Below are positions 2,927-20,444 of a stretch of 20,444 bases of DNA, piece by piece (position 1 is the stretch's first letter; each line of letters starts with the position of its first letter). The stretch is from a virus. The position numbers were made by a program, and so were the translations under genes. Below the pieces are notes generated by a model. It saw only the letters and a program-made list of their open reading frames with translations. It was not told the origin of the DNA and ran no database searches. The stretch is taken from positions 128,001-148,444 of IMG/VR virus record IMGVR_UViG_3300045988_163304. One strand, written 5' to 3'.

Positions 2927-2948
2927 GTTTTCAATCTCCTTTTACTCA

Positions 2949-4103: not shown

Positions 4104-4363
4104 TACTTTCTAATCTCCTATAATAAACTAATACATTCAAATACAGTTTTTCTATAAATTGAGAATTCAATATCATTTAAAACATTTAATCCTTCTAATT
4201 TACTAAGCAACTATAAAAATCGCGGGTCCTAAATAAAAATTTCATTTAAGCCCGCAATTTCAATAATAACTGTATTTAATTGTTTATCCCAATCTTCTTC
4301 ATTTTCTCTCATAGGGATTAATTTCCACAGTTGATTAGTTAATCTTACTATATTTTTTTCCAT
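4103..4363 (-). CDS. small hypothetical protein, about 86 aa, 3 in-frame TAG
   Basis: ATG 4361-4363. Reads MEKNIVRLTNQLWKLIPMRENEEDWDKQLNTVIIEIAGLNEIFI[Q]DPRFL[Q]LLSKLEGLNVLNDIEFSIYRKTVFECISLL[Q]EIRK. Stop overlaps the next start as TAATG. Weak ribosome-binding site. Confidence 0.4.
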
Positions 4364-4391
4364 GACTTCATCGGAAATATCTGTATGATAT

Positions 4392-4979: not shown

Positions 4980-5000
4980 GATACGCCTCCTATTTATTTA

Positions 5001-5588: not shown

Positions 5589-5605
5589 TTTATTATCTCC
5601 TTTTT

Positions 5606-5650
5606 CTCTAAAAAAAATAAGGGGAGAGGGAGTAAATCCCTTCTCCCCTT
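5606..5650 (-). terminator. rho-independent terminator after major capsid gene
   Basis: Hairpin AAGGGGAGAAGGGATTTACTCCCTCTCCCCTT on the minus strand plus a U-run. Near-identical motif to the terminator at 397-440. Confidence 0.6.
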
Positions 5651-5676
5651 AAATGAAATCTATATTAAGGTTTAAA

Positions 5677-6783
5677 TCAAATTTGTCCACTTAGACGTCC
5701 ATCATAGGTAACAACCTTACCAGTTACACCATCATAGTTCCAAGTATACATCTGACCCATTAATGAAGTATCAACATAAGAGCAAATGTTGTTAGCCAAC
5801 ATACAACCAACGCCGACCTTCTTATAAACCTGAATCTCACGAGAACGATCATAATTGCTGAATTCATCAACAATAGTTCCACCCTCGAAAGCAATCTTTA
5901 CAGGCTTGCCATCAACACCAGTAGGAATAATCCAAGCGTAGCCAGGATCAATAACCTTACGGGTATTACTTTCATCCTCGAAGCCCTGCTCTAGAATAAC
6001 AACTTTGGTTCCCTTATAAGAAGCCAAACGACCAGTATTCCACAGCTCAGTCTTCATAGCTTCAGTATAACGCCAAGCTTCATTAGGAATCATACGAACA
6101 GCAAATTCATAAGTACAATAAATAGTAGGAGTACCATAAGCAGAAGCGATGGTAATCAAACGATCCATAGCACCCTCATCGAAACCTGCTGCAGCAACAC
6201 GGTTAGCAGGAGGTAGCTGATTAATAGAAGACTTCAAAGCCAAAGCAACTTCCTTGTAAATCAGTTCATCCATACCATCCATAATAATCTTGGTAACTTC
6301 AGCAAAATCAACACGACCATCTAAGAACTCTTCGAAGCCGATTTGAGCAGCTCCGCCGATAGCAGAGGTACGAACCTCAAAGCTCTCGTTTTCAGCAGGT
6401 CCCAGCTTGAAGACTTCATAGATACCAGCCAGTCCAACGCGAGTCACAAACTGCTTAGCACGTGCGCGTGTGTTTAGAGGACGACGGAAAATGGGCTTAT
6501 CACCCTGAGCAAACTGCTTAACTTCAGCAAACTGCTCATAAGATTGAGAAACCTTCTTAGGAAGAACTTCATCCAAAGTCTCCTCAATCATTGAGAAAAT
6601 TAAATTTTTATTTTCACGATATAGAGCATTAGTGCCAGCCAGCTCATTCATCTCATTACGTAAAGTATCGTTCAGAGCCTCATAAGAAAGGTTCTGACCA
6701 TTATAACTGTAAGCCACAGGAGAAGAAGGATCAGCCTTAGCAACAGTCTTCATTAAAGCAACTAAATTGTTTCTATCTAACAT
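5677..6783 (-). CDS. putative major capsid protein (HK97-like), 368 aa
   Basis: Intact ORF, no TAG, TGA stop, followed by a strong terminator. Sits after a scaffold-like gene. Size and composition fit a major capsid protein. The call rests on gene order and protein features only; no homology search was run. Confidence 0.7.
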   Translation of the reverse strand: MLDRNNLVALMKTVAKADPSSPVAYSYNGQNLSYEALNDTLRNEMNELAGTNALYRENKNLIFSMIEETLDEVLPKKVSQSYEQFAEVKQFAQGDKPIFRRPLNTRARAKQFVTRVGLAGIYEVFKLGPAENESFEVRTSAIGGAAQIGFEEFLDGRVDFAEVTKIIMDGMDELIYKEVALALKSSINQLPPANRVAAAGFDEGAMDRLITIASAYGTPTIYCTYEFAVRMIPNEAWRYTEAMKTELWNTGRLASYKGTKVVILEQGFEDESNTRKVIDPGYAWIIPTGVDGKPVKIAFEGGTIVDEFSNYDRSREIQVYKKVGVGCMLANNICSYVDTSLMGQMYTWNYDGVTGKVVTYDGRLSGQI

Positions 6784-6800
6784 TATTCTTCTCTCCTTTC

Positions 6801-7736
6801 TTACGCAATACGTAGAATCTTAGCGCCACGTTGTCCATCAGGCATAGTATATACCTTAACAACCTGCCACTTCATATCCTGACTCTCATCTTTTACAAGA
6901 ATTCCGTCAGCAGCTGCTGGAGCTAAAATATCACCAACAGAAACACTATCTTCATTAATCATATTAGTAGTATAATGATCACCAACATTAGTCTTGAAGA
7001 CACGAGGAACCATTGCAGTACCTGGAGTCATGCGCTTCTCATGATAAACACCAAGCTTCTTATATGGATCATTAGTCCAAGTCAGCTCTTCGTAAATGTC
7101 AGCGACATCAGTTAGAACCTTATCATAAGCATACTTTACAGGCACAGGAGTCTTAGTCTGATTGGTCTTAGGATCAATTTCATACTCTACACCATTATAA
7201 GTAAACTTATTGTCCTTAACATCATAAACTTCGCCAGCGATGGTAACAGTCTTTAGACCCTGGTCTAAAGCAACAGTGTGCTCAAGTACCTTGTGGTCAG
7301 CACCAGTTTCATCAACACCATTCCAGAAACGTCCACCATATTCAACCTCAGTATGCTCCCAATCATATGGAGAATAAATACGAGCCTGATAGTCGTCCTT
7401 TAGCATAGCAAATTCGCAATCCCACTGCTTAGTTCCATCAGGATGATCGCGATATAACTTAATCTCATTATAAACTAGCATCCACTCACCCTTGCCAGTA
7501 AAATTCACTTCACCAATACCATTGGCATTAGCAGCGTAATCATACTTGACAAACTGGCCGTTTTCAAGAATATTAATATCCTTGTTAGCAGGCAACTGAG
7601 CATAAATTTGAGCGGTTCTTTGTGCAGACAGGTGATTTGGCTCAACCTGACCATAACCAAACTCAACATACTTAGCCTGTGACTTAGGTGGATTCTTACC
7701 AACGCCTAAATGAGAATTTAAAAAATCCTTAAACAT
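6801..7736 (-). CDS. hypothetical head protein, 311 aa
   Basis: Intact track ORF between the scaffold-like and capsid-like genes. No TAG. Confidence 0.75.
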   Translation of the reverse strand: MFKDFLNSHLGVGKNPPKSQAKYVEFGYGQVEPNHLSAQRTAQIYAQLPANKDINILENGQFVKYDYAANANGIGEVNFTGKGEWMLVYNEIKLYRDHPDGTKQWDCEFAMLKDDYQARIYSPYDWEHTEVEYGGRFWNGVDETGADHKVLEHTVALDQGLKTVTIAGEVYDVKDNKFTYNGVEYEIDPKTNQTKTPVPVKYAYDKVLTDVADIYEELTWTNDPYKKLGVYHEKRMTPGTAMVPRVFKTNVGDHYTTNMINEDSVSVGDILAPAAADGILVKDESQDMKWQVVKVYTMPDGQRGAKILRIA

Positions 7737-7754
7737 TTAAGTATGTCCTCCTTA

Positions 7755-9341
7755 TTAGTTTTTATTGGCTGATTCTAGAACAGCCTTGACCCAAGCTGGC
7801 ATTCCAGCATCTCTGTCATCATCTAAATTGCTTAAATTATAGGTAGTTGGGCCTTTATTATTATTATCATCATCAAGGTTAAAATTAACCTTGTTGCGAA
7901 CACAAATAACAGAAAGTTTTGCTTCAATATCATCAACAGAATACTTATCAATGTTATCAATAACATCTTTCTTATCATCATCAGACAGCATATAGAATGA
8001 TTGAATCATAGCTTCTTTGTCCTTGCGCTCAATACTATTTTTAAACTCAGTCAAAGAAGTATTAGTTTCACTTAGAGCCTTATTTTCAGCTTCTAACAAA
8101 CTAAATTTATTTTGCAACTCTTCATATTCTACCTTTAAGCTAACATATTCTTCAATTTCATCTAAGGAATACTTTTTCTTTTTCTTTTCATCCTTATCAT
8201 CTTTTGAAGGATCATCATCTTTATTTTCTGACTTTTGACCATTATTTTTAGAAGAACCATCATCTTTTTTATTCTCAGGGTCGCCAGAATTATCGCCCTT
8301 ATCATCGTTTGCCTTTTTATTTTCTTCTTCTTGCTTTTTCTTAAATTCGGTTTCATAAGCTTCAACCGCCTCTAAAGCAAATTGAGGCTCTGCCGCTGGA
8401 GTATAAGATTTAGTCACTTCAATTAAACCTTCACCAGGAACAAGATCATCAGAATCACTCAAAGAAAAGTTTAAACGATAATATTTCATATCTCCGCGAT
8501 CTTGAAGAATAGCAAATTTTTGACTATTATCTTCAAAAACGCCATCAATACGATACTTAGAGCAATAATTGTTAGAGCCATCAGGGAAAGCCTTATTTAC
8601 GTATTCCCATAAAGCACTCCATAGAGAATCTCCGATTTCTACGGCATATCTATTAAACACTTTTGCTCCTCCTTCTTTTAATAATTCTTTTAATTCATTC
8701 ATCATTGAGTATAGTTCATTTTTAAAACTATCATCAAATGAAAGAGAAAACTTTGTAATAGAGGAGCCTTCGAAGCAAGGTTCACACTCTTCTCCTAAAA
8801 TACAAAGTTTAGAAATAATTGCTTCATTAATAATGAAAAACTACGGCTTTCCATTATTATCTTTCGTCCAAGTTCCATCTAAAGTGCCTTCATCAAGTTC
8901 CATAGAATGATTATTACCCTACTCAATGATGCGCTTACATTCTGGATATTGGCCGGTCCATAAATATCCTTCAGTCATAAGATATTCATGTTCATTAACG
9001 CCATCATCTAAAAATTTCTAAAACCAAACCTTGGCACCTAAATCTACAAAACCATAAGGTTTAGTAGTGTCTTTCATTTCAAACTTTCCGTTTGAAATAT
9101 TAATAATTCTATTGTGTTCCTCAAAATCTCCATTAGATTCATTATAAAAACCAACAATAGGACTGCCAGGGAGACTATTAGCCATCTCCCTTGCAGTTTC
9201 TTTAGAAATAATGCTTCGATTGCGATTTGGTTCATCCCCAACGTAGCAAACTTTAATTTGGCATTTAGAAATCAAAGGATTAATAGGAGTTACATTAATA
9301 AATTCACAAGGCGTTTCAAGTTTAATACTTTGATGCTTCAT
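7755..9341 (-). CDS. putative prohead protease/scaffold fusion-like protein, about 528 aa, 3 in-frame TAG
   Basis: Track ORFs 9018..9341 and 7755..8705 are in the same frame (both ends = 2 mod 3). Translating the intervening 8706-9017 gives no TAA/TGA and three TAG (9018, 8919, 8841): ...GAKVWF[Q]KFLDDGVNEHEYLMTEGYLWTGQYPECKRIIE[Q]GNNHSMELDEGTLDGTWTKDNNGKP[Q]FFIINEAIISKLCILGEECEPCFEGSSITKFSLSFDDSFKNELYSMMNELK... The C-terminal part is K/D/E-rich low-complexity plus coiled coil, typical of scaffolds. AAGGAGG ribosome-binding site before ATG 9341. Confidence 0.55.
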
Positions 9342-9613
9342 GATTTACCTCCTTAATTCATTGACTCTTTATTTTTTATGGTTTTTTCACTTTTCTAATC
9401 ATCAGCCTTTTCAGGTCGCCCAGACTATTTTGTTTCAGTAGTCTGTTTTGTAGTAGTCTATTGATTACTACTTCCTGAATTATTTTGTGTTTTATTCTAA
9501 TTGTTTGAACCTTTATTACCCAAAACATCTTGACTACTCATAGTAGAAGACATTAATGGCGGGATCATAATTTCAGTTAATTTCAACACATCATTTTCAA
9601 ATACCGCAGTATT
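9342..9613 (-). promoter_or_regulatory. intergenic region upstream of the head-morphogenesis operon, with GTAGTC/GACTAC inverted-repeat hairpins
   Basis: CAGACTA-N11-TAGTCTG at 9421-9445, GTAGTAGTC-TATT-GATTACTAC at 9451-9473, and TGACTACTCATAGTAG at 9531-9546. No ORF. Largest non-coding gap in the late block. Confidence 0.45.
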
Positions 9614-11014
9614 TAAAATAAAACTCTAAGAATGACCAAGAGCAATTTGAGGTAGCATCTTAGAATAACCAAGTTGCGTTTGTTCTTTATACAATTTTGA
9701 CATTTCTTTATAATTATATTGTGTAGTTTCAAGCATATAAAATTTAAAACTATATTTCTTATTGTTCGCAACTTTCATCTTTACTATTCTATCAAAAAAA
9801 ATGTTAAATTGCAACAACAAGTTTCTAACAGTTGATTCATCATTGAGGATAGACTTCTCTAATGATAAATTACCATCAGTATTGAATAAATTTTGAGAAA
9901 TACCTAAATTATTATAGACAGTACGTTCAACTTTTGCTAAATCATCTGTAGTAGTTGTAGTATTTTTATCTGATAAATCAATAGATTGAACATCAGTAAA
10001 TGTTGTTAAAACATCAACACCAATAGCTCTTGATAACATAGCAACAGCATTATTATGTATATCACGAGATTCATCAATATCAAATATTAAATCACCATTT
10101 TTATCCATAGGAAGTTTTTGAACAATAATTTTTAACAACTTCTACATTTGTTTTCTGCGATCTAAATCTTGAGCAGCGTCTAAATCCATGAGAGCAGGGA
10201 TAGAATTGATAAATGGTGGTGTATCACTGCCATTAAAATTAAATTTCACACTTAATTCTGGAGATAGTAAATACCAACTTCCACTATAATCTCCCTTAAT
10301 ATCAGGAAGTAATTTTCCCTTCTTATATAAAACATATCCACGCTAAAATTCTTCAGGGAATAATTTTAATACGCGCATACGATAATTAGGATCTGGAAAC
10401 TAATCAAAAAATCGCATATCAAACTCAATTGCTGGCATACCAGCCACAAAGTATCTAGAACGGCAATAACTAGCAGGCAATTCTTGTAACATTAAACTAT
10501 TTGCAGATTGCACTATATATCCATAATAACAACCATTTTTCATAATACTTTGAGCAATATCACCGCAGATTTTTTTAATATAAGTATTATCTAAGTAATT
10601 TAATAACTTTGAGAAATCTTTTAAAACTTTTTCATCTTTTACCGTATCATCTAAAATCTCTGGAGCGACATACCAATCATATCTATACAAATAAGCAAAA
10701 TAATTACATACTCGCTCATAAATACCGCTAATATCATAAAATAAATTAGAAATTCTACGCATTTCAACAATATCACGATTTATCATAGCTCGTAATACAT
10801 CATTTTTAGTGACCATGCGACATGGACCACGACGATTAGGATATAAACGAGCAAATGACCCTAAATCTAATACAGCATCATCTAATGTTTGAACTCCAAC
10901 TTTTATTTTACGATATTCTGTTGGATCAGCAGTTCGATAATCACTTGTTCCATTGCTGATATTAAATCCTTTGGAGTGGATGATTTCCTAACGTGATAAT
11001 TCTTTAGTATCCAA
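9614..11014 (-). CDS. putative portal protein, about 466 aa, 4 in-frame TAG
   Basis: Track ORFs 10400..10816 and 9626..10138 are in the same frame and joined by clean sequence across TAG at 10400, 10343, 10142 and 9626. Probable TTG start 11012-11014 after AAGGAGGTG ribosome-binding site. TAA at 9614-9616. Located just downstream of the terminase, as is usual for portal genes. Portal identity is inferred from position and size. Confidence 0.5.
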
Positions 11015-11026
11015 AATTCCACCTCC

Positions 11027-11383
11027 TTAATATCCAGCTAATTGCATTATATAATCATATGTAATAAGATTCTCGTCTGTATAAGGAATCTCTATTAATT
11101 TAAAATCATGTAAAGCACAAAAACGTCGTTTCTGATTATCATTATACTGTTGTTGGTATAAACCTTTTTTACCACCAAATTTCGCACTAGGCTCATAATG
11201 CTATTTACCCTAATATTCAATAATAAAATCAATTCTACCATCATCATCAAAAACGACAAAATCAAAACGTAAAGGTCTACCACTTGGTGCTTTTAAATCT
11301 GGAAAAATATATTCCATTTTAAATGGTAATTCAGCTTGTCGCAAAATCTCTTCAATTTTAATTTCGCCTCTAGACGCTCTCAT
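11027..11383 (-). CDS. small PD-(D/E)XK (DUF559/Vsr-like) endonuclease-like protein, 118 aa, 2 in-frame TAG
   Basis: GGAGGTAATT then ATG 11381-11383. Reads MRASRGEIKIEEILRQAELPFKMEYIFPDLKAPSGRPLRFDFVVFDDDGRIDFIIEY[Q]GK[Q]HYEPSAKFGGKKGLYQQQYNDNQKRRFCALHDFKLIEIPYTDENLITYDYIMQLAGY. The D...IEx(Q)GxxH pattern resembles the EvDGxxH core of DUF559 nucleases. Confidence 0.5.
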
Positions 11384-11393
11384 AATTACCTCC

Positions 11394-13127
11394 TCAATTT
11401 AAGAAACACCAATCTTTAGCATTAAACTTTTTACGTTTCTTCTTTTTATCTTCTTCTAATTTTAAATAATATAGTCCATATTCAAAAGCAGAAAATTTAT
11501 CTTTTCGGATACTTTTATTTGCTTGCTTCAGGATAATGTTTACTCCTTCAGTCTCTTCACGCAAATTCATCATTTCTTCTTTTAATATGGAAGTTAATGT
11601 AAATGGTTTTAATTCTTCTGCCCTCTATTCTGGAGTCATAGTTTGACCTTTCTTTTTAGCAAGGAGTTTATTTTTTGCTACGCGCTCATCAATTAAAAAT
11701 TTCACTTTTCCAGAAGCAAGTTGTGATTTGGCAATCGCATGAGCTTCTGTATTAAGTGGCGCATTAGCTTTTATAATATACATAGCATCTAATACTGTAT
11801 TAGATGTTTTATATTTTTTATAAAATAAATCATCATCATTGACAACGCCAAAATCAGGGAAAATTTCATTGGTTTCAGGATCAATCTATGTCTTAACCAT
11901 ATAATCAATTAAACCAATTCCTAAACCATTACCATCAATTACAATTCTATCAGCATTATATTTATAATATAATTTTTTTAATTTAATAGTTTGGTCTTCA
12001 AAATGTTCATCAGATAATGTGTATATATTTACTAAACTTTTAATTGAACCACCTTGTGATTGTGGAGTCACTTTAAATACGCAAATGACTGAATCACATC
12101 CTTTACGACCGACATCAACAGCAAGTACATAAGATGCTAATTTTGAATTACGCCCAGATGCTTCATATTCAGGCTAATTTAATATTCTATTTCTATCAAA
12201 TATTTCAGCATTAAAAAATGCATCTTCTACTGTGCCAGACCATTTACTTTCATATTCTCGGTCAAATGAACTTTCATTGAACGTTCCGTCCATTTTTAAG
12301 TCTTTAATAAAATTCGCATCTAATAATTTCATTAAAACAGGAATACGATAAGTACCACCCATAATGATAGATTGCTAAGGTTTAACAATCTCCCAAACTA
12401 ATAATTGAATTAATTTATCATAAGGGAAAGTATTTTTATATCCAGCAGTAGTAATATAAATTTGAGATTTATTAAGAGTTTCATCGGGTTGAGTAGTACC
12501 ATCCATACACATACGAGAAATATTCATTGTAGGAATAATAACTTGTGATAAAATATCACCATCAACACCAACGCACTCTTCAATTAAACCGCCGTGGCGG
12601 CGTTTACCACGAGAAGACTCTCTTGCAGCAATATTATCGAAATATGAACCATTTTTAAATACATATTTAACATAATCTTTACCTTCAAGTGTCTAACCAC
12701 GACGCCAATCTATTTCTTTCTAAAATGCAGGAATAAGAGTACAAATTTCTTGAACTTTTTCTTTTACAATTCCAGCCGCTTGTTCTTTACCACCAGAAGT
12801 AATAAATAATTTGCATCTAGGATATAGAATAGCACGACACATTAAGACCATCATTGATAAAAAAGATTTTGAATAAGCACGAGGGAATACAGCATAAATA
12901 TATTTATGACGCATCGCAGCGCGCAAAAAGATTCTCTAATAAAAATAGAGTTTAAAATGTTGAGGGCCGCCATCAGGCCCAGCCATAAAGTCGATAAACA
13001 TATCTGGATATTCTCTCCAAAAGGCTATGTACTATCTTGCTTCTGGTATAATCGCACGAAGACGGTCCTCTGAAATTCCAATCTTTTTACGCTTCTAAGA
13101 TAAATCAAGTAAATCCTATAAAGCCAT
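11394..13127 (-). CDS. terL: terminase large subunit, about 577 aa, at least 6 in-frame TAG
   Basis: ATG 13125-13127 sits one nt after the upstream TAA. N-terminus reads MAL[Q]DLLDLS[Q]KRKKIGISEDRLRAIIPEAR[Q]YIAFWREYPDMFIDFMAGPDGGPQHFKLYFY[Q]RIFLRAAMRHKYIYAVFPRAYSKSF (terminase N-terminal motif plus deviant Walker A). Includes track ORFs 12720..12926, 12174..12362 and 11886..12071. The last carries VIDGNGLGIGLID, a nuclease-domain Asp motif, followed by ...GVVNDDDLFYKKY...LDAMYII. TGA stop at 11394-11396. Confidence 0.7.
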
Positions 13128-13128
13128 A

Positions 13129-14325
13129 TTATCCTTCTAAATTCCTTAAAGTCTAAGCATCTATTTCAGACTCTTCCTCAAGGAAATCATTATATTCAAT
13201 TAAATCTTCATCTTTAAGATGATCGATTTCTTCCATCGTTAAATCTTCTTCAATATCTTGATCTTCTTCTTTATTTTCCTCTTCTTGCATTTTCTTAATA
13301 GCCCCTTCAATGAGATTACCTAGATTCATCTCTTCAGTGACTAATGTGTGTGTATAATTCTTTAAATCTTGTAAAGTTTCATCAACTTTATCTTTTGGAC
13401 CTTCTGTATAATACCGAGGAATAAATCCTTCAGTCTCACACATGGCCACTAATTCTCCAATAGAATCAAATGCTTCTCCTGTGTCTGCTTTATTTTGAGC
13501 GGCGGTGAAATTACCTGATTTCATTAGACTATCATAAACCTTGCTCATCTTTTGAAAACCTTCGATATCACCAATATCGATCAACTAGTTTGCTTTTAAG
13601 GATGTCTTACAAATTAATTTTAATGTATCAATATGACCAGCGCCGCGAATATCATAAGAACTCATCATTTCTTCATAAAGTTGCTCTAGTTTAACCCATT
13701 CTTCGGGTTTATACGCTTTACCCCACTTCATACGAAGATATAAAATATCTTCTTCTGTTAAATCGAGGTCATCTGCTGGGTCATGTTCAATACCATTCTA
13801 TTGATCAAAATAATTATCACCATCTCTAAAACGTTCTGGCAATTCAGGAGTATAAGGTTTTAATTCTTCTTCTGGAATAGCGACAGTAGATTTAGCAATA
13901 GCCGTTGCTATTTGCTAAGCATCATATCCTTGACGTTTCATAGTTTGCTCTAATTTATTATTAGCCACTTCCTATAAAAACTCAGAATCTTTCCATCGAT
14001 AATCTTTATATTGTTTAAGTTTCATTTTGGACAAATATCTACCTAAAATACTCATACCAGTTAATTTAGATTTATCTTGTCCATATTTCATTAGTAATTT
14101 ACTCCACTCCTCTGGAACATAAGGTATATCAATTTCTTGTAAAATCCACATATAAGTTTCTGGATTCCAGTTATCTACAAGCATTGTAATACATTTTTTA
14201 CATTGAGGGAGTTTTCCATCATTTGGATATTTTTCTAAATTATTAGATGTATAAAACTGGTCAGCACCCATAGTTCTATTACATCGTTCACAATAATATA
14301 CTTTATTACTATTATCTACAGTCAT
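13129..14325 (-). CDS. zinc-ribbon plus acidic C-terminus protein, about 398 aa, 4 in-frame TAG (possible terminase small subunit, from position)
   Basis: AAGGAGGA ribosome-binding site then ATG 14325. Track ORFs 13972..14325 (CxxC...CxxC) and 13153..13584 (acidic tail) are in the same frame. The intervening 13585-13971 translates cleanly with TAG at 13972, 13915, 13798 and 13585, plus TAG 13153. TAA at 13129-13131 immediately precedes the terL ATG. Confidence 0.5.
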
Positions 14326-14367
14326 AATTTTCCTCCTTATATTTATCCAATAACAGGCCTCTCAAAA

Positions 14368-15432
14368 TTATAACTGTTTGCCCTTGTTTTTGGCATTACG
14401 GCATTTTTTACAAATACTATAATAGCCATCTTTACTGGTTTTATTTTTACTAAAATATTTATTATGTGCTAATTTAATTTGCCCACAGCGACTACATTTT
14501 TTATATTTACCTTTTGCTTTATGTAAATAATAATCATATAGGTATTGGTCTTCAGCCGCAGAGGCGATTAATTTTGGAATTTTATTGCGCCATAAACTAG
14601 AAATATATTCTAAGCTATGAGTAATATTAAATTCCTCTTGAATTTTCTTTTGAATGTCTATATTCTATAATCCATCAATTTTATATTCAACTATTCTATC
14701 ATATAAAGGATAATCTTTAAGAGCAATAGTACATAAATTATCAAAATCTTCCATAATATACCATAAATCTCTTTCAAAATCTCCCCAACTATCTTGTTTT
14801 AAACGAGAATAATTACATAAAATTGCAGAACATACTCTAGGATCTAATAGTGAAACGCCATCCGGGATTGGATAACCATCATCATCAAAAATGCAAGTCG
14901 TGTCCTCTAATGGAATAAAATTTCTTGAACGAGTAATTTTAGTCATAATAATTGGACGACGAACTGCATTTTTAATAACATACTAATCTTTACGCATTTC
15001 AATAATAGCACGTTTAATTATAAATGCTTCGCGCCCTTCACTAACTCGTAATTTGGCTTCCCAAGTAGTAATGGCGTCTCTTAACTATTTTAAATGAGGT
15101 ATTTCTTCTATATCTTTTTTAGTAATTGTAATTTTGGGCTAAAATATTGTATTTTTATTTTCAGTAATTAAATTATAAATTCCATCTTCGCCATTCTCAA
15201 ATTGGGAAACAAGACCTTCAAAAGATGTTTCACGTTTATTAACTGTTGCCATACGATTATCAGTTAATAATTTACGCTCCTTTTTCTCTTGTTTCTCCAT
15301 ACAAAGAATGATATAGTCCCCTAATATTTCTAAATATCGAGGAGAGGGGTCTGGGGTTTCCTCTAATATTTTCTTGACTAATTCATTTCTTTCTTCTGGA
15401 GTTTGTAAGGAATAATCTAATTTTATCATCAT
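14368..15432 (-). CDS. hypothetical protein, about 354 aa, 4 in-frame TAG, C-terminal CxxC-N-CxxC zinc ribbon
   Basis: GGAGGTA ribosome-binding site then ATG 15432. Track ORFs 15139..15432 and 14665..14946 are in the same frame and joined through TAG at 15139, 15085 and 14983. Extended through TAG 14665 to TAA 14368-14370 (...CSRCGQIKLAHNKYFSKNKTSKDGYYSICKKCRNAKNKGKQL). First gene after the leftward promoter. Confidence 0.5.
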
Positions 15433-15457
15433 TACCTCCAGATTTTTTTACGTCTTC

Positions 15458-15486
15458 ATTATACAAAAAATTTTTCCAGGTGTCAA
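15458..15486 (-). promoter_or_regulatory. sigma-70/sigma-A consensus promoter (leftward)
   Basis: Minus strand reads TTGACA (revcomp of 15481-15486), a 17-bp spacer, then TATAAT (revcomp of 15458-15463). GGAGGTA ribosome-binding site and ATG lie about 25 nt downstream. Confidence 0.6.
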
Positions 15487-15541
15487 ATTTTAATAAATGC
15501 ATTTAAAAAATTTTTAAACGATACTATTAATTGGAAAAAAT

Positions 15542-15570
15542 TTGACAATAAAAAAAATTTTTTGTATTAT
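15542..15570 (+). promoter_or_regulatory. sigma-70/sigma-A-like promoter (rightward) for the small-gene cluster
   Basis: TTGACA 15542-15547, 17-bp spacer, TATTAT 15565-15570. AAAGGAGAAG ribosome-binding site then ATG 15601. Arranged back-to-back with the leftward promoter and shares an A/T-tract spacer motif with it. Confidence 0.5.
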
Positions 15571-15600
15571 TATTATAATAAAAAATAAAAGGAGAAGTTT

Positions 15601-15999
15601 ATGGTAATTGCTATTATTATATTAAGTATATTATTAATATTATCTATTATATATAATGTATTGTTTACAAAAGGAGTCACTAAACTTCTTGACCCTGAAA
15701 ACATTGAACAAAAATATAATTTAATAGCAGATTATTATGCAGATGCAAATAATATTGAAGAAAGCTTTCCTTGTTGTTTATTATTATATCTTCAATTTAA
15801 TGCGAAAGAATCTGCAAAAATTGCAGACTTCTCTAATTATGAAAATTCTAATATAATCGCCTATTCAGTTTTGTCCAAGGGTCCGCCACCACCTGGATAC
15901 GCCAATCAACTGGAAGAAGACGGCTCTATAAGAATATTAGTCCGCAATGTTCGAGTAAATAAATATAAGGATGGTGAATATTTTTGGGAGCCTATGTAA
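15601..15999 (+). CDS. membrane-anchored protein, 132 aa (N-terminal TM helix)
   Basis: Track ORF with good ribosome-binding site. Hydrophobic N-terminus MVIAIIILSILLILSIIY. Confidence 0.65.
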   Translation: MVIAIIILSILLILSIIYNVLFTKGVTKLLDPENIEQKYNLIADYYADANNIEESFPCCLLLYLQFNAKESAKIADFSNYENSNIIAYSVLSKGPPPPGYANQLEEDGSIRILVRNVRVNKYKDGEYFWEPM

Positions 16000-16190
16000 T
16001 TGTTATCTTTTGGATAATCATTTCAGCATTAGTAATGTTTGAATATATTGATGCAATTCAAAGCGCCGGTGAAAATAAATTAATTGTTTGTTTAATATTT
16101 TTTATTGGTGGCCCAATATTTGCTGCGAGTGATTTATTACAAAAAATTTTAGATATATTTTTACCGGAAGGGTGGAATGGTGATGACTGA
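15984..16190 (+). CDS. small 2-TM membrane protein, about 68 aa
   Basis: Track ORF with TTG start overlapping the upstream gene. Two hydrophobic segments. Confidence 0.45.
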   Translation: MGAYVIVIFWIIISALVMFEYIDAIQSAGENKLIVCLIFFIGGPIFAASDLLQKILDIFLPEGWNGDD

Positions 16191-16209
16191 AAAATAGATT
16201 AAATATATT

Positions 16210-16500
16210 TTGAAAAATTTTAAACGAGGCACTACTATTCTATTTATGGGTGTATCATTTAATCAATATATTAATCTTGAACAATTAACTGAAGCAGGAT
16301 ATACTTGTATCCTATTAGGTGAAGGTCAAGATTATTGGCCCTATATTAAAAATGATATGATTATTTATATAGATGGTATTGGTAATAAAATAAATTGTTA
16401 TCCATTGCATTGTCCTATTTTTGTATACGATAAAAATCGAGTAATAAATACTAAAAATAGAGATGTGCGCGTTTGGGTAGAAGTGTTAAAAGAGGAGTAA
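16210..16500 (+). CDS. hypothetical protein, about 96 aa
   Basis: Track ORF. The start could be ATG 16246 instead of the alternative start used by the track. Confidence 0.5.
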   Translation: MKNFKRGTTILFMGVSFNQYINLEQLTEAGYTCILLGEGQDYWPYIKNDMIIYIDGIGNKINCYPLHCPIFVYDKNRVINTKNRDVRVWVEVLKEE

Positions 16501-16501
16501 T

Positions 16502-16795
16502 ATGAAAATTTATAAATATTTAATTGAAACTCCAGGGTCTACTCATATTATGGATCATTTGACAGATATTGTATCTACTGGATTAGATGTAAATAATAAT
16601 CCATGCGTATGGGCAGTTTATGATGAAAAAGCACCCAAAAAATATTTTCAAATTAATGCTGTTGGCACAGGTTGGGAATTGGATAAATATGTAAATAATA
16701 ATGACAAATATTTAGGAGTTATTAATGATGGCGAGTATATTTGGCATATTATTAAGTCTTCTGGAGAAAAATGTCATATAATGGAGGAGAAATGA
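16502..16795 (+). CDS. hypothetical protein, 97 aa
   Basis: Track ORF. ATG overlaps the upstream stop (TAATATG). TGA stop. Confidence 0.6.
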   Translation: MKIYKYLIETPGSTHIMDHLTDIVSTGLDVNNNPCVWAVYDEKAPKKYFQINAVGTGWELDKYVNNNDKYLGVINDGEYIWHIIKSSGEKCHIMEEK

Positions 16796-16799
16796 TTTT

Positions 16800-17117
16800 A
16801 TGGAAGAAGGAAAAAATTATTTTGATATTGTAATGCGAGAAGGCCAAGCAATAGTTCATAATGAAGGTTCTATTCATTAGGTTGATAGCTTAGGCCGTCT
16901 TGTTTTTCCTAAGAATTTAAGACAAAAATATGGTATTGCTCCTGGCGACCGTATGGAATTTTATACTATTGAATATAATGGTGAAGTTTATGTTGGAGTG
17001 CGAGTGAGTAAACGATATGGTAGTAGAATAGAGTATTTACGCGCTAAAGAAGTATTAGATGATTTAGGAATTGAAATTCCTCAAAAACTAACTGATGCTA
17101 TTAATGGAGTAATGTAA
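16800..17117 (+). CDS. AbrB/SpoVT (swapped-hairpin) family DNA-binding protein, 105 aa, 1 in-frame TAG
   Basis: ATG 16800, TAG at 16878-16880, then VDSLGRLVFPKNLRQKYGIAPGDRMEFYTIEYNGEVYVGVRV. This is a textbook AbrB/MazE-type motif lying directly after the TAG. TAA at 17115-17117. Shows TAG is read as sense on the plus strand too. Confidence 0.65.
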
Positions 17118-17118
17118 T

Positions 17119-17262
17119 ATGCCTAAATATAAAAGTTTTGGAAATGCGCTTGCTGCTAAAATGCAGAAAAAGGCTAATTATTATGCTACTAAAGCAGTTC
17201 ATCAAATTGTATGGGGTGAAAACCCTAAACGGGGTCGTCCTAAGAAGGAGAATAAGAAATGA
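17119..17262 (+). CDS. small basic protein with AT-hook-like motif, 47 aa
   Basis: ATG overlaps the upstream stop. Reads MPKYKSFGNALAAKMQKKANYYATKAVHQIVWGENPKRGRPKKENKK. It contains the RGRP AT-hook core. Confidence 0.45.
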   Translation: MPKYKSFGNALAAKMQKKANYYATKAVHQIVWGENPKRGRPKKENKK

Positions 17263-17342
17263 TTCTTGAAGCATTAGCATTAATAGGATTAATTTTATTT
17301 TTTCCTATTTGGCTTTTTGGTAGGAATAAGATTAAGAAGTAA
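17259..17342 (+). CDS. possible 27-aa hydrophobic peptide
   Basis: ATG within ATGA overlap with the previous stop. Reads MILEALALIGLILFFPIWLFGRNKIKK. TAA stop. No independent ribosome-binding site. Confidence 0.3.
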   Translation: MILEALALIGLILFFPIWLFGRNKIKK

Positions 17343-17354
17343 TTAAAAAAATTC

Positions 17355-17408
17355 TACCGTTATTTGAATTGAAAAAAGTTTTACCGTTATTTGAATTGAA
17401 AAAAGTTT
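17355..17408. repeat. tandem direct repeat, 27 bp x 2 (TACCGTTATTTGAATTGAAAAAAGTTT)
   Basis: Two identical units at 17355-17381 and 17382-17408 immediately after the last AT-rich-part gene, at the composition junction. Confidence 0.8.
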
Positions 17409-17668
17409 TGGTGAGAGTTTGTACCAGCCAAACAAAAAAATAAAAAGCAAAAAAAATTTTTTCCCGAAACCCACCCCCCGGTCGGTTTTTATCTGAGAAA
17501 AAATCTGAACACTATCGAGACCTTCTTGGGCTTGGTGCACGCGGAAAGGCTAGACCATCCCCAATACAGCCCCTCAACTCGCAGAACCGCGAATGGGCGT
17601 CGCGGTCCTCATTCGCAATAAATACAAACTCCACAAAAAATCTCTCGCAAATTTGTGTATTCTGCCAA

Positions 17669-17697
17669 TAGACAAGCATCCTGAAATCTGGTATAAT
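17669..17697 (+). promoter_or_regulatory. promoter, TAGACA-17-TGgTATAAT (extended -10)
   Basis: -35 at 17669-17674, TG at 17689-17690, TATAAT at 17692-17697. Paralogous to the promoter at 19632-19660 (shared TGCCAATAGACAA). Confidence 0.55.
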
Positions 17698-17722
17698 AGT
17701 ATCATCAAAGGAGGAATGATCT

Positions 17723-17818
17723 ATGTCTATCATCTACAAAGTCGTGCGCTTCATCGTTGCGGTCGCCGCTATCGCTGGCACTGGTATCTTAATGTGCCTC
17801 ATCTGCCTCCCTCACTGA
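17723..17818 (+). CDS. 31-aa hydrophobic peptide (type-I-toxin-like or leader peptide)
   Basis: AGGAGG (17709-17714), 8-nt spacer, ATG. Reads MSIIYKVVRFIVAVAAIAGTGILMCLICLPH. TGA stop lies inside the terminator hairpin. Confidence 0.45.
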   Translation: MSIIYKVVRFIVAVAAIAGTGILMCLICLPH

Positions 17819-17830
17819 GGGAGGTTTTTT
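17806..17830 (+). terminator. rho-independent terminator
   Basis: CCTCCCTC-ACT-GAGGGAGG, an 8-bp perfect stem, followed by TTTTTT. Confidence 0.7.
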
Positions 17831-18033
17831 GTTGCCCAAAGATTGTTAAAAATTTAACGATGTAGCAAGATTGTTAAAAGATTAACAATGTAGCGAGATT
17901 GTTAAAAATTTAACAAACACTCAACCAAGAGAGAACAAGGACACGCACGGCACAGTGGACAAGGCAGAGCGAGCCAACGAGCGAGCGACCAACAGACAAA
18001 GAGAACAACACACAACACAACACAATGATAAAT

Positions 18034-18057
18034 ACATTGTTAATGTATTAACAATGT
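18034..18057. repeat. perfect 24-bp palindrome ACATTGTTAATGTATTAACAATGT
   Basis: Read directly from the sequence. It sits at the switch point between a T-poor flank (17921-18030) and a C-poor flank (18058-18127). Confidence 0.9.
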
Positions 18058-18079
18058 AGTATAGTAGTATGGTATGGTA

Positions 18080-18100
18080 GGGTGTAGGGCAGGGGTAGGG
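18080..18100 (+). other. canonical G-quadruplex motif GGGTGTAGGGCAGGGGTAGGG
   Basis: Four G-runs of at least 3 with 2-4 nt loops, inside a nearly C-free 70-nt stretch. Confidence 0.6.
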
Positions 18101-18513
18101 TGTAGGTAGTAGGTGGTGGAGGAGAGTAGACCAACAATAAGAGATGCGAACGCGCTTCCCACCGGTCGGCTCACCGGGAACCGCGCACCAATAAATCTAA
18201 TGTAAGTATTCCATTTCTCTTTTGGGTTCATCATCGTTAACGGCCCTAATCGCCCAAGAATAAGCCCTCGCACTATTGCCAAACAATACAGCAGGGCAGG
18301 TGCTGAACAACGCGTGTCCCACAATGCACAGTTTGCACAGAGGGGCGAGCAAGATTGTTAAACATTTAACAATGTGAGAACCAAGAGCAAGAGAGTAAAG
18401 AGTGCGCTTGCACAGGTAGCAAGGAGGATACACACGGCACAGTTGATACATTTGCTGACCGAGCAAGATTGTTAAAAAATTCACAATGTGTGGATGTGGT
18501 GAAGTTGCTGTTT

Positions 18514-18535
18514 GATTGTGAAAATTTTCACAATC
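18514..18535. repeat. perfect 22-bp palindrome GATTGTGAAAATTTTCACAATC
   Basis: Read directly from the sequence. Confidence 0.9.
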
Positions 18536-18675
18536 GCTGTTGGATGCCGAACACGGACGCCGCGCCCCTAACTTCACCACGTTAAAGTGTTAAAGAAAAA
18601 AAATCGCAAATCCGATTGTTAAAATAATCACAATCTCTGTCCCGAAAATAAGTAGGTTATTTTTGAAAAAACCCC

Positions 18676-18704
18676 TTGACAAATTGCCCCAAGTGTGCTA
18701 CAAT
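18676..18704 (+). promoter_or_regulatory. promoter TTGACA-17-TGTGCTACAAT with upstream TTTTTGAAAAAA A-tract
   Basis: -35 at 18676-18681, -10 TACAAT at 18699-18704 with TG at -15/-14. Paralogous to the promoter at 20369-20397. Confidence 0.6.
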
Positions 18705-18734
18705 GATTACAGTAAAACAAAGGAGGATGATACA

Positions 18735-18971
18735 ATGTCTAACATCTATGGAGTCTGCTACACCACCAAAGAGCCTGTTGTTTACAACAGAGGGACACAG
18801 TGGGAAAAAACCTGTTCTGATTTTCTGTTCGTTCAGGCACGCAAGGATAATGGCACGGAGCTGGTGGACAAGCTGAACGCCCTGCTTGCTGAGGGTGTGG
18901 AAAAGTACGAACTGCTGGACTTGACCAAGATTGACCATTTCTATCTTGCTCAGTCTGAGGAAATGTATTAA
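18735..18971 (+). CDS. small hypothetical protein, 78 aa
   Basis: AGGAGG plus 8 nt then ATG 18735. Reads MSNIYGVCYTTKEPVVYNRGTQWEKTCSDFLFVQARKDNGTELVDKLNALLAEGVEKYELLDLTKIDHFYLAQSEEMY. TAA stop. GC-rich codon usage. Confidence 0.6.
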   Translation: MSNIYGVCYTTKEPVVYNRGTQWEKTCSDFLFVQARKDNGTELVDKLNALLAEGVEKYELLDLTKIDHFYLAQSEEMY

Positions 18972-18984
18972 GGAGGAAATGACT

Positions 18985-19173
18985 ATGACACGCACTATCG
19001 CTAATACCTACATCTGCATCAACGCCGAGGGACAGACGCTCTCCATCATCGCCCGCACGGGCAACGAAGCCCACAACATTGCAATAGGGTTTCTACGGAA
19101 AGCCAACATCGTGAGCGTTCGCCGTGTGTTCAAGTCCGGCAAGCTGGGCAAGGAAATTCTGAAAATCAAATAA
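18985..19173 (+). CDS. small hypothetical protein, 62 aa (second gene of a two-gene operon)
   Basis: AAGGAGGA plus 8 nt then ATG 18985 (an alternative ATG is at 18979). Reads MTRTIANTYICINAEGQTLSIIARTGNEAHNIAIGFLRKANIVSVRRVFKSGKLGKEILKIK. TAA stop, then a terminator. Confidence 0.6.
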   Translation: MTRTIANTYICINAEGQTLSIIARTGNEAHNIAIGFLRKANIVSVRRVFKSGKLGKEILKIK

Positions 19174-19179
19174 AATAAA

Positions 19180-19203
19180 CAGGGCGCAAGCCCTGTTTTT
19201 TTT
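19180..19203 (+). terminator. rho-independent terminator CAGGGC-GCAA-GCCCTG plus T8
   Basis: 6-bp perfect stem with a GNRA tetraloop and a U-run. Confidence 0.8.
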
Positions 19204-19213
19204 GAAAAAACTA

Positions 19214-19242
19214 TTGACAAACATAAATAAGCGTGTTATAAT
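19214..19242 (+). promoter_or_regulatory. promoter TTGACA-17-TGtTATAAT with upstream TTTTTTTGAAAAAA
   Basis: -35 at 19214-19219, -10 at 19237-19242. Near-duplicate of the promoter at 20041-20069. Confidence 0.65.
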
Positions 19243-19274
19243 AAATACAGAAATTAAGAAATGAGGTACACGAA

Positions 19275-19463
19275 ATGAAAAACATCTATGAAATCGAGAA
19301 CATCATCGACGAAATTCCCGCTGATGATTGGGCTGGCATTTGTAATCTGATGGACTACTACTATCAGTCGAATTTCTCCGCTGATGCTGAGCAGAGACTG
19401 GCAAGAGCAATCGCGCCTTACGGTTTAACCACAGAGGAAATCCTGACTTGGGACGCTGAGTAA
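19275..19463 (+). CDS. small acidic hypothetical protein, 62 aa
   Basis: Track ORF. Ribosome-binding site GAAATGAGGT. TAA stop lies in the terminator loop. Confidence 0.6.
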   Translation: MKNIYEIENIIDEIPADDWAGICNLMDYYYQSNFSADAEQRLARAIAPYGLTTEEILTWDAE

Positions 19464-19478
19464 GCGTCCTTTATTTTT
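19451..19478 (+). terminator. rho-independent terminator GGACGC-TGAGTAA-GCGTCC plus TTTATTTTT
   Basis: 6-bp stem. The loop contains the stop codon of 19275..19463. Confidence 0.65.
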
Positions 19479-19631
19479 ACTACTGGATTGTTAAAACTTT
19501 AACGAGCATCGTCGCGCCCATCAAGCACGTGGCGCCCCGAAATATTATACCACAGCAGTCCACCAGTTGTCAAGAGAAAAATGCGAAAATTTCGCACAAA
19601 ATTTGCTATCCCGATTTGTATAGTTTGCCAA

Positions 19632-19660
19632 TAGACAAAATGAAATAAGCATGTTATAAT
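19632..19660 (+). promoter_or_regulatory. promoter TAGACA-17-TGtTATAAT
   Basis: -35 at 19632-19637, -10 at 19655-19660. Paralogous to the promoter at 17669. Preceded by the 9th palindrome (19486-19506) and a perfect inverted repeat TGCGAAAATTTCGCA (19581-19595). Confidence 0.55.
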
Positions 19661-19692
19661 GAATACAACAAAACAACAAAGGAGATACAAAG

Positions 19693-20001
19693 ATGATTAA
19701 CATTCGTTCTATCCGCAAACTGGGTGAAAATGATGGGCTGACGCTCAAAATGGGCAAAAAGGTAAACTATAAATCCGGCTGGCAGGTTGCCACAGAGGGC
19801 GTGGAATGTAAGACCGCACAGGAAGCCATTGACGCGGTGAGAGACTATGGCGGAAATTGCGGCGTATGGTTCAGCGAGGGCATTTATTACATCGACAAAA
19901 GCAAGCGCGTGGCGACAAAGCGTGAAGCTATGGAAATCGGCAAAGCGTGTAATCAAATTTCCGTGCTGAAATGGGCGACTATGACGCTTGCATACTGCTA
20001 A
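19693..20001 (+). CDS. hypothetical protein, 102 aa
   Basis: Track ORF. GGAGAT ribosome-binding site. TAA stop, then a terminator. Confidence 0.65.
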   Translation: MINIRSIRKLGENDGLTLKMGKKVNYKSGWQVATEGVECKTAQEAIDAVRDYGGNCGVWFSEGIYYIDKSKRVATKREAMEIGKACNQISVLKWATMTLAYC

Positions 20002-20006
20002 AATAA

Positions 20007-20030
20007 TAGGGCGAAAGCCCTATTTTTTTT
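20007..20030 (+). terminator. rho-independent terminator TAGGGC-GAAA-GCCCTA plus T8
   Basis: 6-bp stem, GAAA tetraloop, U-run. Confidence 0.8.
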
Positions 20031-20040
20031 GAAAAAAGTA

Positions 20041-20069
20041 TTGACAAACCGCTTTTAACCTGCTATAAT
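20041..20069 (+). promoter_or_regulatory. promoter TTGACA-17-TGcTATAAT with upstream TTTTTTTTGAAAAAA
   Basis: -35 at 20041-20046, -10 at 20064-20069. Confidence 0.65.
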
Positions 20070-20099
20070 TAAACCATCAAAAGAGAGGAGCTAAAAGCT

Positions 20100-20291
20100 A
20101 TGACAAACTTTGAACAGTATTTCGAGAAACTGATGGGGATGAAGAAAGCGGAAATCATCAATGAGGGCATCACTTGGGGCTTCTGGGCGAACACCGAGGG
20201 CAACAAAGCCGAGCTGATGAAATGGAAAAAAGTGCTGCTGGCGCGTTCCCTCGCCGATAGGCTGGAAAGACTGGAAAGGCGGGGCTACTAA
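20100..20291 (+). CDS. small hypothetical protein, 63 aa
   Basis: Track ORF. Ribosome-binding site GAGAGGAG. TAA stop. Confidence 0.6.
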   Translation: MTNFEQYFEKLMGMKKAEIINEGITWGFWANTEGNKAELMKWKKVLLARSLADRLERLERRGY

Positions 20292-20293
20292 GA

Positions 20294-20318
20294 CAAGGGC
20301 GAAAGCCCTTGTTTTTTT
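20294..20318 (+). terminator. rho-independent terminator CAAGGGC-GAAA-GCCCTTG plus T7
   Basis: 7-bp stem, GAAA loop, U-run. Confidence 0.8.
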
Positions 20319-20368
20319 ATATGGCATTATGCCCATAATTCGGTTGAAAATTTTGGTCATTTTGCCTA

Positions 20369-20397
20369 TTGACATCCTGCCCCATTTGTGCTATACT
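20369..20397 (+). promoter_or_regulatory. promoter TTGACA-17-TGcTATACT
   Basis: -35 at 20369-20374, -10 at 20392-20397. Shares the CTGCCCCA-N-TGTGCTA spacer motif with the promoter at 18676. Confidence 0.55.
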
Positions 20398-20401
20398 CGG
20401 T

Positions 20402-20426
20402 CGCGCGCCCACGGCCCTGGCGCGCG
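20402..20426 (+). other. GC hairpin at predicted transcript 5' end (GCGCGCC-N9-GGCGCGC)
   Basis: Stem at 20403-20409 pairs with 20419-20425, directly after the predicted start site. The downstream gene is beyond the window. Confidence 0.4.
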
Positions 20427-20444
20427 AAATTTACCATTATACCA

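Follow-up and report, generated by a model that had tools for sequence, protein, structure and literature searches.

The DNA considered here is a 20,444-nucleotide stretch of IMG/VR virus record IMGVR_UViG_3300045988_163304 (positions 128,001 to 148,444), referred to below as the window, and the subject of this analysis is the region from position 17,343 to the end of the window, where guanine-plus-cytosine (GC) content and gene organization change. We found that positions 17,343-20,444 formed the first 3.1 kb of a ~15.3-kb high-GC block, which, with a probability of roughly 0.7, is a native immediate-early region of the host-takeover type in a ~198-kb phage that reads TAG as glutamine (Gln) and infects human-gut Firmicutes. 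As judged from the assemblies that we compared, the GC jump is real and the block is native to the phage lineage. In the related IMG/VR contig 140174, the block occupied ~52.6-67.9 kb and was bordered on both flanks by low-GC genes that used TAG. Beyond the block were ~3 kb of 25-30% GC with minus-strand genes using TAG, followed by at least 22 kb of ~40-44% GC with TAG-free genes on the plus strand.

The initial annotation had described an abrupt switch from TAG-recoded DNA to a module of 50% GC. The switch itself was evident, with the sharpest contrast between adjoining 2-kb stretches at position 17,461 (28% GC on the left and 45% on the right), while the value of 50% was too high, as the module had 44-45% GC and the block open reading frames (ORFs) in the window had 46-52%. 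Overall, GC content was 32.1% over positions 1-17,342, 22.7% in an AT-rich spacer at 17,343-17,461, which lies between the last low-GC gene and the block, and 44.7% over 17,462-20,444. The switch was almost purely synonymous and was located at the third codon positions: the GC content of third positions (GC3) was 0.22 in the late genes on the left and 0.63 in the block (0.54-0.70 for the ORFs in the window), whereas that of first positions (0.45 versus 0.50) and second positions (0.32 versus 0.36) differed only slightly, and the amino-acid compositions were alike. The previously noted change in codon usage was also clearly seen. In particular, the preferred leucine codon was TTA in the late genes (59%) and CTG in the block (50%), the preferred isoleucine codon was ATT in the late genes (76%) and ATC in the block (57%), and the glycine codon GGC rose from 15% to 54%.

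The use of TAG changed at the same place. On the left, 14 tightly packed minus-strand late genes contained 56 in-frame TAG codons in 4,804 codons (~1.2%); these ORFs fragment under the standard code and are intact only with TAG read-through, which substantiated the description of this side as TAG-recoded. The genes include the following:

5,677-6,783, minus strand: major capsid protein, a late gene with TAG read-through
9,353-11,014, minus strand: portal, intact only with TAG read-through
11,394-13,127, minus strand: terminase, intact only with TAG read-through

The structural genes matched the SPbeta-derived Pfam families YonG, YonD, YonB, YomW, YomV and YomU. The last TAG-containing gene, which is AbrB/MazE-like, ended at 17,117 and the last low-GC gene at 17,342, so that genetic code, codon usage and promoter type had a common boundary to within ~120-350 bp. 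On the right, 27 block genes (median 75 aa) were called in 12.7 kb of the sequence designated L001, six of which lie in the window. All of them had ATG starts, nearly all were preceded by an AGGAG-type site, and their stops were 21 TAA and 6 TGA. A single TAG was present in 2,511 codons, compared with ~29 expected at the rate of the late genes, and TAG was otherwise not used as a stop. The sole block gene touching a TAG, at 12,215-12,538 of L001, encodes 102 aa under the standard code and continues for five more codons to a TGA under code 15; since the TAG lies only five codons before the TGA, nearly the same protein results under either code.

The block was also distinguished by its promoters, which were identified as sequence matches only. 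Between 52,780 and 67,313 of contig 140174, we counted 30 extended -10 promoters with no more than one mismatch, 27 of them on the plus strand, while only one such promoter was found in ~54 kb sampled outside the block. These values correspond to ~2 promoters per kb in the block and ~0.02 per kb outside it, which is a ~100-fold enrichment; the window's own genome had 28 extended -10 promoters. With the pattern TTGACA-N14-TGnTATAAT and at most one mismatch, the window gave seven matches (six of them in 17,343-20,444), compared with 0.04 expected. Seven promoter-ORF-terminator cassettes ending in six TAA and one TGA had been proposed for this part. The promoters, ribosome-binding sites and terminators were present as described and no ORF contained an in-frame TAG, but the counts required correction: there were six complete ORFs (31, 78, 62, 62, 102 and 63 aa) with ATG starts and AGGAG-type sites, served by five promoters and five intrinsic terminators and ending in five TAA and one TGA, and the 78-aa ORF and the 62-aa ORF that follows it formed one operon with a common promoter and terminator. 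Moreover, the module did not consist of cassettes throughout, as 17,826-18,675 was free of ORFs and the promoter at 20,369 began a hairpin element with no ORF behind it in the window. The 27-bp tandem repeat was found at the boundary as previously indicated. The features from the spacer to the end of the window are as follows (the promoters being pattern matches):

17,341-17,409, no strand: 27-bp tandem repeat of 2.6 copies, from Tandem Repeats Finder (TRF), inside the AT-rich spacer
17,462-17,668, no strand: GC-rich non-coding leader, almost invariant in relatives, the start of the high-GC block (7-genome alignment, change point 17,461)
17,669-17,697, plus strand: promoter P1, TAGACA-17-TGgTATAAT, 11/12 with extended -10
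17,723-17,818, plus strand: gene for a 31-aa hydrophobic peptide, ribosome-binding site AAAGGAGG, TGA stop
17,805-17,825, plus strand: intrinsic terminator, 9-bp stem followed by TTTTTT
17,826-18,675, no strand: conserved ORF-free segment (~850 bp) with a palindrome array, T-less and C-less tracts and a G-quadruplex (G4) motif
18,676-18,704, plus strand: promoter P2, TTGACA-17-TGcTACAAT
18,735-18,971, plus strand: 78-aa ORF, gene 1 of the two-gene cassette, TAA stop
18,985-19,173, plus strand: 62-aa ORF, gene 2 of the two-gene cassette, with its own AAGGAGG site, TAA stop
19,177-19,198, plus strand: terminator
19,214-19,242, plus strand: promoter P3, TTGACA-17-TGtTATAAT, 12/12
19,275-19,463, plus strand: 62-aa ORF, TAA stop, diverged or missing in some relatives
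19,450-19,470, plus strand: terminator, overlapping the stop codon of this 62-aa ORF
19,484-19,573, minus strand: half of a convergent-promoter hairpin element, with the ninth palindrome copy, a GC-rich hairpin and an antisense promoter
19,632-19,660, plus strand: promoter P4, TAGACA-17-TGtTATAAT
19,693-20,001, plus strand: 102-aa ORF, TAA stop
20,005-20,024, plus strand: terminator
20,041-20,069, plus strand: promoter P5, TTGACA-17-TGcTATAAT, 12/12
20,100-20,291, plus strand: 63-aa ORF, TAA stop
20,290-20,315, plus strand: terminator
20,369-20,444, plus strand: convergent-promoter hairpin element, TTGACA-17-TGcTATACT, hairpin TCGCGCGCC/GGCGCGCGA and reversed promoter, cut by the window end

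The leader had no Rfam match. Several of the block gene products were predicted membrane peptides, and functions could be recognized in the distal block, outside the window. There, we found an NT5C/5'-deoxyribonucleotidase-like protein (PF06941 at 1.8e-5; phrog_2643, which PHROGs assigns to 'host takeover'), together with an HD hydrolase and a protein with a T5orf172 domain. The 5'-deoxyribonucleotidase-like gene lies at 16,108-16,554 of L001, and the T5orf172 and HD genes lie at 11,634-12,032 and 12,256-12,867 of L020. The block also changed faster than the late region: its proteins were 58-100% identical among relatives and differed in presence or absence, while the late proteins of the same genomes were 89-100% identical. 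The 31-aa peptide showed 90-94% amino-acid identity among relatives. The terminator at 19,177-19,198 and the promoter that follows it belong to a repeated terminator/UP-like/promoter unit of ~73 bp (family D5), and repeated junctions of this family (~70 bp) could mediate the shuffling of cassettes. The 102-aa protein belongs to a family known only from metagenomes (5,227 matches at E <= 1e-3, on contigs of 158-205 kb), and its confidently predicted alpha/beta fold (predicted local distance difference test score, pLDDT, 89.9) had no match among solved structures.

The nearest annotated genome was that of phAss-1 (OQ749652; proposed Phassvirus; 'Caudoviricetes code 15 clade' at NCBI), whose major capsid protein was 50% identical, followed by ~140-kb Enterococcus phages with 41% identity in the same protein. 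phAss-1 is a human-gut phage in which TAG is read as Gln and for which an Eubacteriales host was predicted (PMC10607447). Upon comparison of the two genomes, we found the layout to be the same: in phAss-1, too, the late region was low in GC, the terminal block was high in GC and dense in promoters, and convergent-promoter hairpins were present. In particular, its late region had 34-41% GC, while the region from 94 to 136 kb had 45-56%, mostly 49-52%, and its consensus promoters were sparse in the middle of the genome and dense over the last 12 kb, where all of them pointed inward and the first lay ~40 nt from the end defined by PhageTerm (PMC10607447). The differences were a smaller genome (136 kb versus ~198 kb) and a milder GC contrast (~35% against 51% within the phAss-1 genome), and the 102-aa protein, the sole block protein tested, had no phAss-1 match by tblastn. 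A correlation between GC3 and TAG density in naive code-15 ORFs of phAss-1 had the expected direction (rho -0.24, p 0.005) and was not relied on, as ORFs on the wrong strand contaminated the set. The host of the present phage is accordingly placed in the human-gut Firmicutes, probably the Clostridia, on the basis of the TG-extended promoter consensus and strong Shine-Dalgarno sites, the host prediction for phAss-1, and related short contigs in Lachnospiraceae/Eubacteriales bins of metagenome-assembled genomes (MAGs).

Of the alternatives put forward in the initial annotation, horizontal acquisition was not supported, whereas a chimeric assembly and a junction of the phage with a host chromosome, as at a prophage border, were refuted by the comparison of assemblies. 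The junction was colinear in more than 10 independent assemblies. The window itself is the last 20.4 kb of the 111,159-bp ENA contig ZEEV15-1 scaffold_77, and its positions 9,693-20,444 were 100% identical to a 199,479-bp ENA contig from another sample, in which similar cassettes continued for more than 10 kb. Seven IMG/VR contigs (up to 197.7 kb) aligned across the junction with 88-93% identity. The ~197.6-kb IMG/VR contigs began at differing points of the genome, which together with the contigs of 193-199 kb indicates a genome of ~198 kb; contigs of 199.2 and 193 kb contained the window's tail-tube gene with the genes on either side of it and the neighbouring structural module, the stretches compared being ones that exclude the junction. 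The end of the window at 20,444 was an assembly break within a repeated promoter-hairpin unit and not a biological end. A chimera of two unrelated genomes would fit the abrupt change in composition and the end of the window's contig 3 kb after it, but it is scarcely credible given the same junction in independent assemblies from different samples and assemblers, diverged strains included. It is also highly improbable that the right part is bacterial chromosome next to a prophage. Such a junction is suggested by the rise of GC at the borders of recoded prophages (10.1101/2021.08.26.457843) and by two GTDB MAG contigs holding a 49-50% identical homologue of the 102-aa protein. However, phage genes lay on both sides of the junction in the 193-199-kb contigs from independent samples, more TAG-using, phage-like genes followed past the block, and no bacterial housekeeping genes were found past the border, where phage-like orphan genes ran on for at least 40 kb. 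Orphan genes of 60-200 aa with ~2 promoters per kb are unlike a chromosome, and the MAG contigs were short (11-17 kb), at least one of them with the same promoter-hairpin element. A foreign island that arrived recently by transfer from a phage or host of higher GC, and whose composition has yet to ameliorate, is somewhat easier to imagine and still unlikely. It would account for the sharp compositional boundary (~120 bp), for the cassettes gained or lost between relatives, and for the small proteins, whose homologues in INPHARED phages were limited to one 16-kb faecal contig; blastn of the 3-kb module against INPHARED gave no match. In contrast, homologous modules were present in related phages, with the block at the same site in every relative sampled and only single cassettes varying, and block and junction were colinear in all of them at the identity given above. 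No direct repeats common to both block borders were found, no integrase domain was present in the block proteins scanned, and the 27-bp repeat, which varied from 1 to 2.6 copies among relatives, had no copy beyond this junction in ~85 kb of genome sampled, the far border of the block included. The confinement of the difference to third codon positions, the same gradient of GC and promoter density in phAss-1 with unrelated genes, and the higher GC of the rest of the non-late genome (40-44%) all argue for a native block.

Two further explanations concern the position and the composition of the block. It is possible, with odds well below even, that the junction at ~17.35-17.46 kb is or adjoins a physical genome end, in which case the block would lie at a terminus, perhaps within a terminal redundancy like those of SPO1 or T5; such an end would be compatible with an immediate-early block. 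The promoter-dense block of phAss-1 abuts the PhageTerm-defined end and is transcribed inward (PMC10607447). In the alignment of seven genomes, the repeat-bearing spacer was hypervariable, while the sequence from 17,462 on was nearly invariant. Additionally, contigs of 166 and 168 kb stopped less than 1 kb past the far border of the block, and an independent 11.3-kb Logan contig (L002, 93% identical) began ~10 bp from the junction. Several assemblies, on the other hand, ran through the junction and covered at least 40 kb on either side of it, and contigs also broke at the repeated promoter/hairpin units within the block, the end of the window included, so that contig ends are weak evidence. 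In positions 1-120 of L002, which correspond to ~17,333-17,450 of the window, we observed an unrelated AT-rich repeat, GAAATGAAAAAAGATTTCAT x2. As for composition, matching to the host tRNA pool is an attractive reason for the GC3 split, and an alternative that we consider rather doubtful is that GC-rich synonymous sites shield the DNA or RNA expressed first from AT-directed host silencing, nucleases or RNases, or that they suppress spurious promoters amid the real ones. This would agree with the purely synonymous nature of the shift, with the ~43% GC of the ORF-free segment at 17,826-18,675, which indicates a bias beyond codons, and with the tRNA set of phAss-1, which is complete and not a supplement for AT-ending codons. 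Against this alternative, the promoter regions between block genes remained AT-rich.

The immediate-early reading therefore remains preferred, and it would work as follows. On entry, the host sigma-A RNA polymerase would find the ~30 near-consensus extended -10 promoters of the block, each of which would drive a 1-3-gene cassette (median 75 aa per gene) that has a strong Shine-Dalgarno site and ends in an intrinsic terminator. The avoidance of TAG, both as sense codon and as stop, and the GC-ending codons (GC3 0.63) suggest that the block genes would be translatable in the uninfected cell, whereas the late genes (~1.2% in-frame TAG, GC3 0.22) presumably await the phage suppressor tRNA and perhaps the phage's own tRNA set. 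The products, which include membrane peptides, proteins of unknown fold, the 5'-deoxyribonucleotidase, the HD hydrolase and the T5orf172 protein, presumably act on the host by redirecting it and by counteracting its defences, a role that would account for the rapid turnover of cassettes. The suggestion in the initial annotation of an early or host-takeover module translatable under either code thus gained support at the level of sequence, from the dense host-type promoters, the strong ribosome-binding sites, the terminators, the TAG avoidance, the turnover and the T5-like 5'-deoxyribonucleotidase. A more speculative extension, to which we would give clearly less than an even chance, regards the genome as written in two dialects that act as a two-layer translational timer, accompanied by early small RNAs (sRNAs) of ~100 nt or polymerase-collision switches and by a palindromic protein-binding array of 8-11 sites next to the G4. 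In such a timer, the first block would use the standard code, GC-ending codons and sigma-A promoters, and the late genes, with TAG as Gln and AT-ending codons, may be untranslatable until phage tRNAs accumulate.

Several observations weigh against the immediate-early reading. The early timing, the use of host polymerase, the host-directed function and the match of the GC-rich codons to the host are all inferred; timing is deduced from promoter type and position, and the codon match refers to a predicted host. Searches of Pfam and PHROGs with the six window proteins gave nothing above threshold, a PDB sequence search with the 78-aa and 102-aa proteins gave no match, and no function could be assigned to any of the six from these searches. 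Scans of the window and of ~85 kb of the ~198-kb phage genome detected no tRNA, including a suppressor tRNA(CUA). phAss-1 has three suppressor tRNAs, and its nearly complete tRNA set does not consist just of readers of AT-ending codons. Finally, two divergent sigma-70-like promoters that lack the TG extension were observed at 15,458-15,570, between the TAG-recoded late operon and a low-GC plus-strand operon; the minus-strand promoter scored 12/12 and its plus-strand partner 11/12. As these consensus-like promoters precede the late operon, promoter type alone does not separate temporal classes; the host polymerase may reach the late genes too through them, in which case translation, because of TAG, would be the block to expression.

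The ORF-free segment contained a regular array. A 20-bp palindrome, ATTGTTAA-N4-TTAACAAT, occurred in eight copies within 17,826-18,675, the first three forming a 28-bp tandem, and a ninth copy was found at 19,487-19,506. The nine matches in the window compare with 0.07 expected, and both the number and the position of the copies were conserved in all relatives, while the palindrome was absent from ~60 kb sampled elsewhere. The array might be bound by a dimeric regulator or might act as an origin or as a site for packaging or partition, and it matched no Rfam family. The same segment contained the sole T-less run of at least 35 nt in the window (17,957-18,025, 69 nt), two C-less tracts (18,053-18,089 and 18,091-18,130) and the only canonical G4 motif of the window, GGGTGTAGGGCAGGGGTAGGG at 18,080. 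Its predicted RNA folding gave a z value of -3.6, which is inflated by the palindromes.

We also found a repeated element that consists of two face-to-face consensus promoters ~38 bp apart with a GC-rich hairpin between them. The copy cut at 20,444 has its full version at 10,677-10,772 of L001, and the half element of the window has an antisense promoter at 19,573-19,544 (12/12, TTGACA-18-TATAAT). Five full units were present in 20.3 kb of L001, and further copies were located elsewhere:

L001, 10,677-10,772, 11,808-11,903, 15,873-15,967, 18,297-18,391 and 20,057-20,130: full units
L033, 30,714 and 32,917: further copies
L029, 11,178: further copy

The 9-bp stem was 94% paired in 18 distinct copies, and five of its nine pairs showed double compensatory changes; this covariation was reached by none of 500 shuffles, and slid controls gave at most 0.085. 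The loop CACGRCC and the 3' flank GAAATTTCC were conserved. A transcript from the reversed promoter is predicted to begin at the hairpin and to extend for ~90-130 nt, into the upstream terminator, which is frequently symmetric. On this pattern, the units may represent a family of early sRNAs or a polymerase-collision device. Rfam gave no family at the gathering score and only terminator-like noise at E < 1. We considered whether the hairpins mimic CRISPR repeats, as two copies start with GTCGCGC and end with GAAAT, and dropped this idea, since stems that differ freely through compensatory changes are the opposite of what mimicry of one host repeat would produce. Elsewhere in L001, at 18,587-19,171, there were four consensus promoters, three of them in tandem ~120 bp apart with no ORF behind them, and each promoter sat within the inverted repeat CCCCTCTTGACA ... 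TGTCAAGAGGGG. These may be promoters of non-coding RNAs or operator-flanked promoters.

Some neighbouring genes were also observed. The AbrB/MazE/SpoVT-type DNA-binding protein gene at 16,800-17,117 (PF04014, 3e-6) contains one in-frame TAG and is a candidate regulator, and two short ORFs (17,119-17,262 and 17,259-17,342) stand between it and the block border. In L026, an ORF at 11,848-12,777 with six in-frame TAG codons and a GC3 of 0.17 stood alone amid genes of ~40% GC that lack TAG; possible identities are an inserted gene in the late dialect and a homing endonuclease.

To place the block among known systems, we compared it with the early regions of other phages. SPO1's host-takeover module comprises genes 37-60 in a terminal region of 12.4 kb that contains 26 small genes; the promoters and ribosome-binding sites of these are of the type usual for highly expressed genes read by the host sigma-A polymerase (PMC6873191). 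The module and the present block are similar in their size of ~12-15 kb, their two to three dozen mostly small genes, their many short operons and the type of their promoters and ribosome-binding sites, and both phages have Firmicutes hosts. Nevertheless, no sequence homology to the SPO1 module was detected, and the structural genes here are SPbeta-like, of the siphovirus type, and not herellevirus-like. The standard code applies throughout SPO1, which is not known to have a comparable GC3 split. In T5-like phages, the pre-early region resembles the block, probably an early region too, in including a 5'-deoxyribonucleotidase, which in T5 is encoded by dmp, and, if the junction lies at a terminus, in its tie to a genome end. 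The block here includes a T5orf172-domain protein as well; host clade and virion genes differ. T5-like phages have ~9.7-kb terminal repeats and a two-step injection (PMC10644984).

The model of Borges et al. for recoded phages is that standard-code genes come first and recoded late genes follow after suppressor tRNAs (10.1101/2021.08.26.457843). In that work, as in the present phage, most recoded stops that lie in frame belong to structural and late genes, while the (here presumed) early genes fit the standard code that the host uses; low overall GC is linked there to recoding. A keyword search of that work found no description of a sharp within-genome GC3 split at a code boundary together with a promoter-dense block, neither the GC split nor the promoter block is mentioned in the phAss-1 paper (PMC10607447), and keyword searches of the literature gave no description of a within-genome GC split, which is absence of evidence only. 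The block is of known kinds, being a phage early or host-takeover block in a code-partitioned recoded phage. What is new is that the GC3 split is sharp and purely synonymous and falls exactly where code and promoter type change, together with the regulatory elements that accompany it.

The timing of the genetic-code switch in recoded gut phages, which are common, is known only as a model. The block described here is a conserved and sharply bounded standard-code compartment, in which code, codon usage (GC3 0.22 versus 0.63) and promoter type change within ~120-350 bp, and with it the model becomes testable. For assembly and annotation pipelines, the result serves as a warning that a GC jump of this kind within a phage contig is genuine biology and not a chimera or a prophage edge. 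Furthermore, the block offers small orphan proteins by the dozen, which evolve fast, come from a widespread phage family and are candidates for host-takeover or anti-defence functions.

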